Below are positions 1-60,944 of a stretch of 64,000 nucleotides of DNA, in pieces (the stretch's first letter is position 1; the number at the start of each line of letters is the position of its first letter). Made by a program: the position numbers and the translations under genes. The notes under the pieces are model-generated. The model saw only the letters and a list, made by a program, of their open reading frames with translations. It made no database searches and was not told the DNA's origin. This DNA comes from a virus (lineage: Duplodnaviria; Caudoviricetes): positions 1 through 64,000 of the IMG/VR virus record IMGVR_UViG_3300013936_000002; one strand, 5' to 3'.

Positions 1-933
1 AACAAAATATATTTAGGAGATGCTTACGAATTAATCAAACAAATTCCTGATAAAAGTATTGACTTAATTGTTACTGACCCACCTTATGAGTTTGTACCTG
101 GTGGAAATGGTCATAGTGAATTAGGACAACGAAAAATTGCATCTAAAGATGAAATTTACAATCTTGATACAAATAGAACTAAACAAAATATCGTTACAGG
201 TGGTGGTTGTTTTAGAACAAAGCAAAGAGATTATTATAGTGAATTTTCTGAAACTGATGTATCTAAACAAAGGCAAGAATATTTAGATTATGTTGCTAAA
301 CATGGCAAAGATGAAGAAAGCGAAAGATTAAGAATAATTGCTAATAGAATTGATAACAATAATAATATTAGATTTATTTCAGAAGGAATATCTAATGAGA
401 TTTTAAAAGAATTTGTTAGAGTTATGAAAAAAGGTAATATTTATATCTTTTGTAATAAAAATCAATTGAGACAATACTTTGATTTCTTTGGAGATTTAGG
501 TTGGAATTTAGATTTACTTGTATGGAATAAGACAAATTGTATTCCAACAATTAATAATACATATTTAGCAAATTTAGAATACTGCGTATTTGCTAGAGAA
601 AGTGGAGCTCCATTATATGGAAGTTATGAAACAAAATCTAAATGTTATACATCATCTTGCAACAAGAAAGACAAAGATTTATTTTTACATCCAACAATTA
701 AACCTTTACCATTTATTAAAAACTTAATTATTAATTCTTCACAAGAAAATCAAGTAGTATTAGATCCATTTATGGGCAGTGGAACAACTGCAGTAGCTTG
801 TAAAGAACTTAATAGACAATTTATAGGTTTTGAATTAAATCCAAAGTTTTATGAAATTGCAAACGATAGATTAAATGATGTAACTCAAGTTGACAAGAAA
901 AAAGAACAAGAAGGTTATATGAAATTATTTTAA
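1..933 (+). CDS. DNA adenine/N4-cytosine methyltransferase, beta class (5'-partial; ORF is open from base 1, not 424)
   Basis: Frame 1 is open from base 1: NKIYLGDAYELIKQIPDKSIDLIVTDPPY (motif IV), later HPTIKP and VLDPFMGSGTT (motif I) and FIGFELN; DPPY-before-FxGxG order is the beta class. Confidence 0.92.
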   Translation, partial: NKIYLGDAYELIKQIPDKSIDLIVTDPPYEFVPGGNGHSELGQRKIASKDEIYNLDTNRTKQNIVTGGGCFRTKQRDYYSEFSETDVSKQRQEYLDYVAKHGKDEESERLRIIANRIDNNNNIRFISEGISNEILKEFVRVMKKGNIYIFCNKNQLRQYFDFFGDLGWNLDLLVWNKTNCIPTINNTYLANLEYCVFARESGAPLYGSYETKSKCYTSSCNKKDKDLFLHPTIKPLPFIKNLIINSSQENQVVLDPFMGSGTTAVACKELNRQFIGFELNPKFYEIANDRLNDVTQVDKKKEQEGYMKLF

Positions 934-37889: not shown

Positions 37890-38714
37890 TTACCCCCATA
37901 TAGCACTTTGCGAATAATAAGTTTGACTGGAATCATAAGTTGTAGCTTGTATAAAAGTTCCATCATTATTTTTAACAAAAATATTTTCTTTATTTGTATT
38001 AAAATATCTTTCATTCATTTCATTAATTACACCAAACTCAACCTTAGAAGAACTATCATAATCATGATTATCTTCGTTAGCAAAACCAAATAAATCCCAT
38101 TCACCTATATTAACTACATTTTCTAAAAGCAAGCCATAAGTAATTCCCATGGATTCAATAGCAATCATTCTATTTAAGAATAAGTTTTGCATATTTAAAG
38201 ATAATTCATTCCAGTTATTACAATAGATTTGACACTCTGCACTAGATGTTGGAATATAAGTTAAATTAATAGGTAATAAATTATTATCTACATAAGCCTT
38301 TGCTAAATCTTCTCTAGTTCCATTAAAATGTTGTTTGATAATTTGTGAACGAATATAAGTAATAAAATCATAATTATCTAAAACAATTGTTTTTGTAGTT
38401 GTTAAATCTTCAACCTTTTTAGGATTATCACTCCATTTAATAGTCATTTGTCTATAACAATTAAATATTGCACCTATATTATCTAAAGTTTGATCTGCTT
38501 CACCATCAATATTTTTAGTAATATAATCGTTAATTGTTCCATCTAAAATATTGTATTTTTCTAATAATTTATTATAAAAATCGTTTAAAGATTCAAGGAT
38601 TAAATAAACAGCTCTTATTTGTTGATTAATACCATAAGAACCATTTAAAAACAAACTTAAATATCTAATATAATATTCATAAGTAATTAATTTCTCATTT
38701 TTAATAAGAGCCAT
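37890..38714 (-). CDS. DUF2612-like baseplate protein
   Basis: QTLDNIGAIF...R, LDNYDFITYI...HFNGT motifs; after baseplate J. Confidence 0.7.
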   Translation of the reverse strand: MALIKNEKLITYEYYIRYLSLFLNGSYGINQQIRAVYLILESLNDFYNKLLEKYNILDGTINDYITKNIDGEADQTLDNIGAIFNCYRQMTIKWSDNPKKVEDLTTTKTIVLDNYDFITYIRSQIIKQHFNGTREDLAKAYVDNNLLPINLTYIPTSSAECQIYCNNWNELSLNMQNLFLNRMIAIESMGITYGLLLENVVNIGEWDLFGFANEDNHDYDSSSKVEFGVINEMNERYFNTNKENIFVKNNDGTFIQATTYDSSQTYYSQSAIWG

Positions 38715-57754: not shown

Positions 57755-57973
57755 ATGAAATTAAAAGAAATTATAAAGTATTTTAGTAGATATGAAAAGA
57801 TAACATTATCATATAGAAATGAAAATGAACCAAAATTTGAGGGTATAGTGCTTGAACTATGTGATGGCACAATAATGCATGATAAATTATTAAATTCAAA
57901 AATAGTAAAAATTGGAGCTACTCTATTCAATTTATGTATTGAATTGAAAAAAGGAGAAAAAATAAGATTATGA
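57755..57973 (+). CDS. MKLx[DE] family small protein, paralog 5
   Basis: MKLKEII...KFEG. Confidence 0.65.
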   Translation: MKLKEIIKYFSRYEKITLSYRNENEPKFEGIVLELCDGTIMHDKLLNSKIVKIGATLFNLCIELKKGEKIRL

Positions 57974-58413
57974 AAATTAAATTAAAAGATTTAACAGCTA
58001 AACAATGGAACGACAACATGGGTTGCGAGTGTAACAAATATAAAGACTGTAATGGTTGTAGATTTAGATATATAGATTGCTCTACCTCAAACTTTGAAAG
58101 CTCATGGATTAATCACAAAGAAATATTCAATGATAAATTTTTAGATCAAGAAATAGAAATTGAAATGCCTGATATTTTAAATGAACAAGAAAAAGAATAT
58201 TTAAAAGCGGTTATCAAACCATTCAGAGATAGAGTTATTTCAATAAGAAAAAATTTTGATGTGTTTAAAGATGCTTACTCTATATTTATTTATATTAAGA
58301 GCACAATGGAGATAGGTAAAGTAGAAAGTATAGGTTTACCATTTTTCAAAAATAATATGTATATGGGAATGGAACACACCACAAATTATACTTTAGAAGA
58401 ATTAGGATTATAA
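57970..58413 (+). CDS. two-domain hypothetical protein (Cys-rich N-terminus; ...YTLEELGL C-terminus)
   Basis: CxC..C..C...C domain paralogous to the 58417 N-terminus. Confidence 0.7.
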   Translation: MKIKLKDLTAKQWNDNMGCECNKYKDCNGCRFRYIDCSTSNFESSWINHKEIFNDKFLDQEIEIEMPDILNEQEKEYLKAVIKPFRDRVISIRKNFDVFKDAYSIFIYIKSTMEIGKVESIGLPFFKNNMYMGMEHTTNYTLEELGL

Positions 58414-58416
58414 AAT

Positions 58417-59401
58417 ATGAAACAATCAATTAAATTGAAAAATATGGTAGAAGAACAATGGGAGCATTTTAAAATGAATGAATGTTATAATGAGATTATA
58501 GAATGTGAAAATTGTCCATTTAAGTATATTGATTGTAATGAATTTGAACTTGAAGATGCATGGGTTAACCATAAAGATTTATTTAGTGATAAATTTTTAG
58601 ATCAAGAAGTTGAAATAGAAGATGAAGAGCTATTATCTGAAGAAGATAAAGAAAAGGAAATAAAAATGGAATTAAACAAAATATATTTAGGAGATGCTTA
58701 CGAATTAATCAAACAAATTCCTGATAAAAGTATTGACTTAATTGTTACTGATCCACCTTATGAAATAAATAGTTTAACAGGTGGTGGTATGTTAAAAGAA
58801 AAAAGAATAGAAAATTTAATGGACAGTTTAGAAAATGAGAATCTACATATAGGAATTAAAGAAGATATTCTAAACGAATTTATAAGAGTTTGCAAAAAAA
58901 TAAATGTTTATATATGGTGCAATAAAACCTTGATTCCTAAGCTATTAGATTTTTTTGTTATCAAGCATAAATGTACATTTGATATAATCACTTGGCACAA
59001 AACAAATGCAATGCCTTTATGTGGTGGGAAATATTTAACCGATACAGAATATTGCTTATATTTCAAAGATGGAGTAAAACTTAATACAACTTATGATACA
59101 GCTAAAACTCATTATGAACTACCTATTAATATTCAAGATAAAGCACTTTATTCTCATCCTACTATTAAGCCAATACAAATTATTAAGAACTTAATAACTA
59201 ACTCAAGCCTTGAGGGGGGGGGTAGTGCTAGACCCATTTATAGGTTCAGGAACAACAGCTGTTGCATGTAAAGAATTAAATAGACAATTCATAGGTTTTG
59301 AATTAAATCCAAAGTTTTATGAAATTGCAAACGATAGATTAAATGATGTAACTCAAGTTGATAAAAAGAAAGAAGAACAAGGCTATATGAAATTGTTTTA
59401 G
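58417..59401 (+). CDS. beta-class DNA methyltransferase interrupted by a +1 frameshift in a G9 tract (likely phase-variable); internal start at 58666
   Basis: DPPY and HPTIKP in ORF 58417-59271; VLDPFIGSGTT...FIGFELN in the next frame; removing one G joins them as LEGGVVLDPF. Confidence 0.85.
59214..59222 (+). repeat. G9 homopolymer (contingency tract)
   Basis: CTTGA-GGGGGGGGG-TAGTG. Confidence 0.95.
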
Positions 59402-59413
59402 AAAGGAAAAAAC

Positions 59414-60944
59414 ATGAAAAAAGTTGATGAAGAACAAATATCTTTATTTAGTATGATATATGATGAATTTAAGATTACAAAACCAATTAGATTAATTGAA
59501 TTATTTGCAGGCTATGGAAGTCAATCATTAGCATTAAAATATTTAAATGTTAATTTTGAACATTGGAAAATTGCAGAATGGGCAGTAAAATCAATCATTG
59601 CTTATAAAGATTTACATTTTAGTGAAAATAATCAAGATTATTCCAAAAATTTAAGTTTTGAAGAAATAATTAATTATTTAAACGATTTAGGAATATCAAT
59701 GGATTATAATGAACCTATGAATTTAAAACAAATAAAATCTATGGGTGAAAATAAATGTCGTATGGTATTTAATGATATAAAAGCAAGTAATAATCTTGTT
59801 AATATATCAAAAGTGAAGGGGGGGGGATTTAAACATTGTTGATAGTGATAAGTTTCAATATATAATGACTTATTCCTATCCATGTTGAAAATGACAAGAT
59901 TTATCATTAGCTGGAAAGCAATTAGGAATGACTAAAGGTAGTGGAACAAGAAGCGGTTTATTATGGGAAGTAGAAAGAATTTTAGATGAATTAAAACAAG
60001 ATAATATTCAAGAAATGCCGATACTCTTAATGGAAAATGTTCCAGAAGTTCATTCTAAAAATAATATTAAAGATTTTAGATTATGGATTCAAAAATTAGA
60101 ATCCTTAGGTTATACAAATTTTTGTGAAGATTTAAATGCCAAAAATTATGGAATACCTCAAAATAGAGTTAGAACATTTATGATTTCTATTCCAAAAGAA
60201 TGTATATATTATTTTCCAAAAAAGAAAAAATTAGATATTTTATTAAAAGATTTATACATTAAAAATGTAGATGAAAAATATTTTTTAAAAAACAAACAAA
60301 TAAATGATATTATCCATTGGAAAGCACAACAAGATCCAATCGAAACAATGGATAAAGTAAATAAAACAGGTATTATACCTATTATAACTACAAGAAGTGG
60401 AGACTATACAGCTGGTATGATATTAATACCTATTAAAAATAATACTTCTCAAGGATATGAAATGGCAACATTTGGTGATGGTATTAATATTAGTGGTAGA
60501 ATGAAATATCAAAGAGGTAATGTGCAGCATGGATTATCTCAAACTTTAACTACTAAAAGTAATGTAGGTATTATTAATGAGTTACAATTACTTGGAAATG
60601 CAACAAATAAAACATTTAACAATGGAAAAGATATTCATCAACAAGATAGATGTTATAATGATAATTTATTGACAACTATTAATACTCATGTATTTCCATA
60701 TCATTTAGATAATTTAAGATTTAGAAGATTGATACCTAAAGAACATTTTAGGTTAATGGGAGTTAAAGATAAAGATTTTGAAAAAATTAAATTAAACCAA
60801 TCTGACCAATCATTATATCATTTAGCTGGGGATAGCATTGTTGCAACTTGTTTAATGGGTTTATTTGGACAATTATTAGGAATTAATTGGCAAGATAAAT
60901 TTAATATAAAAGAATGGTTTGATTATTTACCTAAAAAAATTTAA
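59414..60944 (+). pseudogene. C5-cytosine methyltransferase (M.SssI-like N-terminus) disrupted by a G9 frameshift and a 9-nt stop-containing insert
   Basis: LFAGYGS (motif I), YSYPC-[TGA AAA TGA]-QDLS (motif IV), GTRSGLLWE, LMENV (VI), QNRVR (VIII), LAGDSI (X). Confidence 0.85.
59818..59826 (+). repeat. G9 homopolymer (contingency tract)
   Basis: GTGAA-GGGGGGGGG-ATTTA. Confidence 0.95.

Follow-up and report, generated by a model that had tools for sequence, protein, structure and literature searches.

Phase-variable methylases are a textbook feature of bacterial pathogens. Described cases include the mod genes of Haemophilus and Neisseria, the poly-G-bearing cj0031 of Campylobacter jejuni (PMC4889913) and methylases of Helicobacter pylori (PMC3936762). 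Phage contingency loci have been recognised only recently, mainly in receptor-binding genes. In Campylobacter Fletchervirus phages, as summarised in a later study, G tracts of 7–11 nt in receptor-binding protein genes alter adsorption (Sorensen et al. 2021, Cell Rep 35:109214; via 10.1101/2025.10.21.683753, PMC12823448), and phage contingency loci have been formalised with T2 and T4 (bioRxiv 10.1101/2025.10.21.683753). By the account given there, a poly-G tract in the methylase gene of Bordetella phage BPP-1 was noted and never studied (Liu et al. 2004, via 10.1101/2025.10.21.683753). A 2026 review of prokaryotic methyltransferase regulation includes no phase-variable phage methylase. Here we describe two runs of nine G (G9; hereafter Gn for a run of n) in adjacent N6/N4 and C5 DNA methyltransferase genes of a phage in the IMG/VR virus record IMGVR_UViG_3300013936_000002, and we suggest that both are probably contingency loci. 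The window spans the first 64 kb of this 74,407-bp record, and coordinates are in window numbering.

The locus resembles the Fletchervirus system in having in-gene G tracts that would make ON/OFF subpopulations of an AT-rich phage. It differs in that the genes there are receptor-binding genes, whereas here two orphan DNA methyltransferase genes are involved, in an uncultured phage of gut/rumen type known from sequence. With the contingency loci of T2/T4 it would share repeat-driven reversible frameshifting as phage bet-hedging. BPP-1 provides a precedent for poly-G within a phage methylase gene; here, in contrast, two candidate switches lie side by side, tract length is polymorphic between genomes, and repeats are enriched in DNA-modification genes across the family. 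As in bacterial phasevarions, repeat slippage inside a methyltransferase open reading frame (ORF) would toggle methylation, yet those systems are cellular, usually of type I, IIG or III, and act on a host regulon, whereas this one is phage-borne.

The genome has 99-bp direct terminal repeats, a CheckV completeness of 100% and 26% G+C. The features that make up the two tract-bearing genes are listed below.

59214-59222 (+): G9 tract 1, in the beta-class N6/N4 methyltransferase gene, just 5' of motif I; OFF here.
58666..59220 (+): beta-class N6/N4 DNA methyltransferase, N-terminal part, running to tract 1 and carrying TDPPY (motif IV); matches PF01555 profile positions 1-182 (E 1e-8).
59216..59401 (+): remaining, C-terminal part of the N6/N4 methyltransferase, read in the +1 frame as far as a TAG stop and carrying GGVVLDPFIGSGTT (motif I); matches PF01555 profile positions 182-220 (E 1.7e-15).
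59818-59826 (+): G9 tract 2, in the C5 methyltransferase gene, 5' of motif IV; OFF here.
59414..59817 (+): N-terminal part of the C5 methyltransferase (ELFAGYGSQ, motif I), 5' of tract 2; shares 96% identity with the N-terminus of P0010, an intact homolog of 513 aa.
59826..59885 (+): 20 codons (DLNIVDSDKFQYIMTYSYPC) in the G8 frame, the last being the catalytic Cys codon; aligns to motif IV of M.MpeI (PDB 4dkj).
59886..59894 (+): 9-nt insert, TGA AAA TGA, with two in-frame stops, between the motif IV Cys and Gln codons; a 3-residue gap relative to PDB 4dkj and 8c56.
59895..60944 (+): remaining, C-terminal part of the C5 methyltransferase, with QDLSLAGK, ENV, QNR, the target-recognition region and GDSIV of motif X; PF00145, E 1.6e-30.

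The initial annotation had noted that the G9 runs are unique in the AT-rich window, one in each of two neighbouring methyltransferases. We found that this extends to the whole 74,407-bp genome, which has no other G run of 5 nt or longer. Only three C runs of at least 5 nt occur genome-wide: a C6 and a C7 run, both in ORF-free DNA, and a C5 run at 37893. Four overlapping matches to G8 were observed in the window, compared with a mean of 0.03 in its dinucleotide-preserving shuffles, and none of 100 shuffles reached four. GGG makes up only 4.8% of the Gly codons in the genome, and the adjacent GGG pair flanked by G in each tract is therefore an anomaly of codon choice. Methyltransferase genes occupy ~7% of the genome, giving a chance of ~0.005 that both tracts would land in them. 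Both G9 runs are thus in-gene, slippage-prone repeats far exceeding compositional expectation, as contingency loci require.

Tract 1 splits an N6_N4 methyltransferase of family PF01555, which has TDPPY near its N-terminus, DPFIGSGTT past the tract and profile matches in both halves; since motif IV precedes motif I, the enzyme belongs to the beta class. With G8 the reading becomes ...SSLEGGVVLDPFIGSGTT. That G8 restores this frame had been proposed from the window, and the proposal holds: G8 joins both PF01555 halves and would give a complete 244-aa N6/N4 protein, as found intact in relatives. The N-terminal part is 96-98% identical to these intact 244-aa homologs (e.g. P0265 and P0268). The gene is predicted to be a straightforward poly-G ON/OFF switch, here OFF.

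Tract 2 sits 60 nt 5' of the PC codons in a PF00145 C5 methyltransferase, whose motifs are present in order: ELFAGYGSQ (I), SYPC (IV), MENVP (VI), PQNRVR (VIII) and AGDSIV (X). Its best solved relatives are of the M.MpeI type (PDB 4dkj and 8c56, E ~1e-25). Motif IV and later motifs of the M.MpeI/M.SssI-type enzymes align to the window enzyme, whose gene differs in adding the poly-G tract and a 3-codon stop-bearing insert after the Cys codon and in having a different target-recognition region. Reading tract 2 as G8 gives ...KVKGGDLNIV...TYSYPC, the frame running ...KVKGGDLNIVDSDKFQYIMTYSYPC. The corresponding claim for this gene, that G8 restores the frame, stands up to the PC motif; it does not stand for the full ORF, since two TGA stops follow the catalytic Cys in all close relatives. 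In the window, TGA AAA TGA parts PC from QDLS within the catalytic loop, and the related genomes G001 and G002 have TGA CAA TGA at the same site. Consistent with this, all 11 of the listed 157-aa N-terminal products in a 90%-identity cluster end ...SYPC. The intact homolog P0010 has KGKD instead of KGGD and is free of the insert. Because the TGA insert follows the Cys codon, G8 alone would yield just a 157-aa C5 fragment unless the stops were bypassed. A change of tract length would therefore toggle the frame of an otherwise intact gene at both sites, with the C5 frame then halted by the insert. The C5 gene is predicted to carry the same type of switch as the N6/N4 gene, also OFF, gating a frame that needs a second event for the full enzyme.

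The lengths of both tracts vary among close relatives (those of ENA and Logan relatives were deduced from product lengths and C-terminal tails). Genome G002 has G8 at both sites and both genes in frame. Genome G001 has G8 in the C5 gene and G7 in the N6 gene, the latter in frame owing to a different flank. The 142-aa C5 product of the window's G9 allele (P0241), present on contigs from JGI, ENA and Logan, differs at 0/134 residues from the 157-aa G8 product P0245 over the first 134. Another G9 form (P0251) matches the G8 forms P0242 and P0250 exactly over the same stretch, and two further G9 forms lie 1-2 residues away from G8 forms; altogether, G9 was found in at least three C5 backgrounds. 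N6 alleles within one 90%-identity cluster encode products of 244 aa (ON), 284 aa (G9) and 185 aa (G7). The 244-aa ON forms predominate, and one allele (P0277) ends ..SSLEGG, implying G7 and the OFF state. The relatives thus carry the tracts, and for C5 and N6 alleles alike the lengths differ in otherwise near-identical genomes, with G8 and G9 C5 alleles sharing identical protein backgrounds. Among the 15 cluster members listed, 11 C5 N-terminal alleles have G8 and four have G9; that 11/15 are in frame compares with 1/3 by chance (P 0.002), the alleles not being phylogenetically independent.

Could the ninth G be a homopolymer sequencing or assembly error, with a true G8 at both sites and both genes constitutively in frame? 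Several platforms are error-prone on runs of G8-10, and JGI, ENA and Logan contigs may share read sets. Against such an origin, the exact OFF products recur, on nine contigs for the C5 gene and seven for the N6 gene, from three assembly sources. Moreover, the 22 A8/T8 runs disrupt no identified gene (metK, with an A8 run, is intact), and both +1 and -1 shifts, at lengths from G6 to G10, are found across many unrelated assemblies.

The wider families bear on the same question. In the N6/N4 family, G6-G10 occurs just before motif I at 10 IMG/VR loci, of which 6/10 are frameshifted there, as compared with 0/~55 tract-free loci shifted at the motif I site (Fisher P 2.5e-6). Likewise, among the best 120 database representatives of N6/N4 proteins, 10/25 alleles with a GG tract are truncated at the tract, versus 4/94 of the others (P 1.8e-5). 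At the locus of a distant relative (L010, 54% identity), the N6 gene has G8 where G9 would be in frame, and the next gene, a phrog_757 DNA methyltransferase, has G9 where G8 would be in frame; neither tract length matches its frame, so both adjacent methyltransferases are OFF. The initial annotation's reading of the tracts as ON/OFF switches is thus borne out by G8 and G9 on identical backgrounds and by homologous sites in relatives that range from G6 to G10, about half of them out of frame.

Long in-gene repeats are present at 19 of the 82 loci of the C5 family, as poly-G, (ACTT)4-5, (AT)n or (GA)n. They number 23 in 116 kb of gene versus 11 in 268 kb of flank (0.20 vs 0.04 per kb, ~5-fold, P 2e-9), and the majority of the flank repeats themselves lie inside neighbouring N6_N4 or Dam methylase genes, with one in a PAPS-reductase-domain gene. 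The (ACTT)4-5 repeats (L037, L041, L054, L079, L086, L098 and L104) encode TYLLTYS and lie ~30 nt 5' of the PC codons. This second, independent repeat type has five alleles in frame and two out of frame (L054 and L104). Tetranucleotides are not prone to homopolymer error, and because (ACTT)n alleles are also out of frame, such error is no explanation for those. We consider homopolymer error highly improbable as the source of the G9 tracts.

Other interruptions were also seen in these families. Two N6/N4 homologs (L158 and L159) have a recurrent, tract-free frameshift in motif I, a +1 A that turns LDCF|AGSGTT into LDCFSRKW..., and P0295, P0300 and P0305, known from protein only, have frameshifted tails like theirs. 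Near the C5 methylases of other phages, (GA)8 lies in the adjoining PAPS-reductase-domain gene (L045:827) and (AT)8 in an adjoining Dam-family methylase gene (L046:3094).

A further rival explanation is irreversible decay, in which both methyltransferases would be pseudogenes and the tracts chance breakpoints. This fits the C5 gene best, with its two stops, as that gene carries two kinds of lesion, a frameshift and a stop-bearing insert; the phage also retains two other intact methyltransferases, so loss would be tolerable. Selection on the C5 gene speaks to this. Comparing the window with G001 and G002, the ratio of nonsynonymous to synonymous substitution rates (dN/dS) is 0.03-0.15 over the 134 codons 5' of tract 2, at dS 0.15-0.35, and 0.17-0.31 over the C-terminal part. 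No extra stop or frameshift was found in ~500 C5 codons across these three genomes, at dS up to 0.35. Together, purifying selection and the in-frame majority among alleles argue that the C5 gene is kept functional despite the shared insert. Decay is also at odds with the N6 gene, which is otherwise intact, with ON alleles on identical backgrounds. We therefore think decay unlikely for the pair.

The C5 genes of these genomes also differ in length. The codons after the insert number 349 in the window and 275-277 in G001/G002, and the target-recognition part (60400-60944 compared with L025/L026) differs in sequence too. This suggests a swap of a predicted specificity module among phages otherwise ~95% identical.

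Transcriptional slippage is supported by homopolymer runs of ~9, and on a G run tRNA-Gly is able to re-pair whatever the frame. Programmed slippage by RNA polymerase or the ribosome might then act at the level of expression, G9 giving a fixed small fraction of full-length product, that is, dosage control and not a heritable switch; a low dose of a harmful methylase would make sense. However, a fixed recoding signal should hold one length, whereas the tracts vary in length among near-identical genomes, with the in-frame G8 commonest. We also detected no stimulatory RNA structure near the tracts, where, as at the insert, a search for stimulatory or take-off hairpins gave nothing significant (z -1.8 to +0.3). 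As the sole explanation, programmed slippage seems very unlikely, and it is compatible with heritable switching, the two not being mutually exclusive.

The insert in the C5 gene raises the question of how a full enzyme might be made. In this phage TGA does act as a stop, terminating 15/90 long ORFs. An alternative code in which TGA specifies Trp or Gly was ruled out: ATGA start/stop overlaps occur, all Trp codons are TGG, and the C5 gene holds the sole two internal TGA codons of any real gene. No tRNA genes, including suppressor tRNA genes, were found in the whole genome. The insert might be crossed by read-through or by a hop from UGU onto the second UGA, the latter restoring PC-QDLS; otherwise the enzyme may be split, or the gene may recombine repeatedly with intact alleles. 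As in the bypass of T4 gene 60, a gene under selection contains a short untranslated gap, and a stop stands immediately behind the sense codon that precedes it; the candidate landing codon, UGA, matches 2/3 positions of UGU. The case differs from gene 60 in that the gap is 9 nt versus 50, the UGU/UGA codons are not fully matched and the search for a take-off hairpin found none. A check for a low-divergence valley near tract and insert met with too few differences for judgement.

Across the C5 family, short inserts that carry stops or break the frame are concentrated at the catalytic motifs (59886-59894 in the window; L039, L043, L007, L069, L186, L028, L044 and L049). The insert after the Cys codon, TGA-NAA-TGA, occurs in the window's clade. 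Another, after 'CCG', consists of TAA plus 3, 4 or 5 nt (TAACTT, TAAACA, TAACTA, TAAGGCG and TAAATTCA) in lineages scattered on the tree. Elsewhere there are 7-nt inserts in QDLSL|AGK and 4-nt and 8-nt inserts in motif I (FA|GYG). The best 120 C5 N-terminal fragments from the protein database include 14 that end ..SFP, five ..SFPC and 10 ..SFPCQ. A single origin of the 'CCG TAA' inserts was considered and is unsupported by a tree of the conserved C-terminal block, though recombination between N- and C-terminal halves keeps this result from being decisive.

Taken together, the lone G runs, the length polymorphism on the same backgrounds and the family-wide enrichment of repeats and frameshifts lead us to favour the view that the tracts are heritable, repeat-switching contingency loci, which we judge likely, with this genome in the OFF/OFF state. 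Under this model, polymerase slippage during phage DNA replication would gain or lose one G in a tract, and each methyltransferase gene would thereby pass into and out of frame in a heritable, reversible way. Each switch would act independently of the other, this genome having been caught with both OFF, and the C5 'ON' state would require further decoding by a hop or read-through; failing that, it would give a split product. Switching within populations may follow, along with a change in the phage methylome. The tract methylases presumably act on the phage genome itself, and it is reasonable to infer that switching would hedge between hosts that restrict unmethylated DNA (type I-III) and hosts that restrict methylated DNA (type IV).

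Several points weigh against this interpretation. The C5 'ON' state is unproven because of the two in-frame TGA codons, TGA being a genuine stop; beyond the insert it depends on a putative bypass or read-through, or gives a split product. Length variation is known from assemblies, and heterogeneity within a population and reversibility are predictions of the model. Contig counts are possibly inflated by re-assembly of the same samples, and the tallies, made on consensus assemblies and cluster representatives that are non-independent, are no gauge of the rate of switching.

A broader reading, which we put forward only tentatively, as possible and on balance doubtful, is that the DNA-modification genes of gut/rumen phages form a dedicated contingency set, their catalytic motifs being bordered by tracts of poly-G, (ACTT)n, (AT)n or (GA)n. 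Each virion lineage would then carry a heritable, stochastic combination of methylation marks, and the M.MpeI-like C5 family would add a layer of stop-bearing inserts, its output needing two independent low-probability events. In such a scheme the C5 inserts, persisting under purifying selection, would need hopping or other decoding.

Two further features belong to the setting of the tract genes.

1..933 (+): paralog of the N6/N4 methyltransferase, intact and running across the record ends; PF01555, E 8e-31; N-terminus MKLNKIYLGDAYELIKQIPDKSIDLIVTDPPY; longest G run 3.
58417..58665 (+): small upstream ORF, an in-frame fusion to the N6/N4 methyltransferase in the window; a separate 80-aa protein in relatives (P0269 and P0274).

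The paralog at 1-933 had been taken to be intact, and it is, without a repeat tract. Past the window, at genome positions 64548-71387 (L024), are a resolvase-type serine recombinase, a 446-aa N6_N4 methyltransferase and the S-adenosylmethionine (SAM) synthetase MetK. This third N6_N4 methyltransferase (65824-67164) is likewise repeat-free. With it and MetK downstream, the phage has four methylases plus its own SAM supply, and the two repeat-free N6_N4 methyltransferases beside the two tract genes point to a variable layer atop a constant one. The tract genes do not look like part of a type I/III restriction-modification operon, membership of which defines a phasevarion: the order is methylase, methylase, unknowns, and no Pfam or PHROG nuclease match that could mark a nuclease partner was found among the few neighbouring ORFs scanned, which encode small proteins.

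The small upstream ORF, of 83 codons, runs stop-free into the start of the N6/N4 methylase, and the N-termini of this ORF and of the one before it (57970-58413) are paralogous. Outside ORFs, the C6 (54007) and C7 (54240) runs of the window and a G7 run in G001 (54093) and a G8 run in G002 (75489) are mutually non-homologous; these ORF-free G/C tracts might be promoter-spacer tracts. No close relatives were found in the INPHARED phage collection, and the terminase is at most 27% identical to those of cultured phages. A scan of genome contigs found no host or prophage, and a DNA-pattern scan of metagenomes returned just a duplicate of G001 and chance matches.

The two independent switches would give four states of the phage's epigenetic camouflage, and the same design appears in uncultured phages of many unrelated kinds. 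Methylase genes that look 'broken' in viral metagenomes are not to be dismissed as pseudogenes or sequencing errors. If this interpretation is true, one phage lineage could persist among hosts that punish unmethylated and methylated DNA alike.

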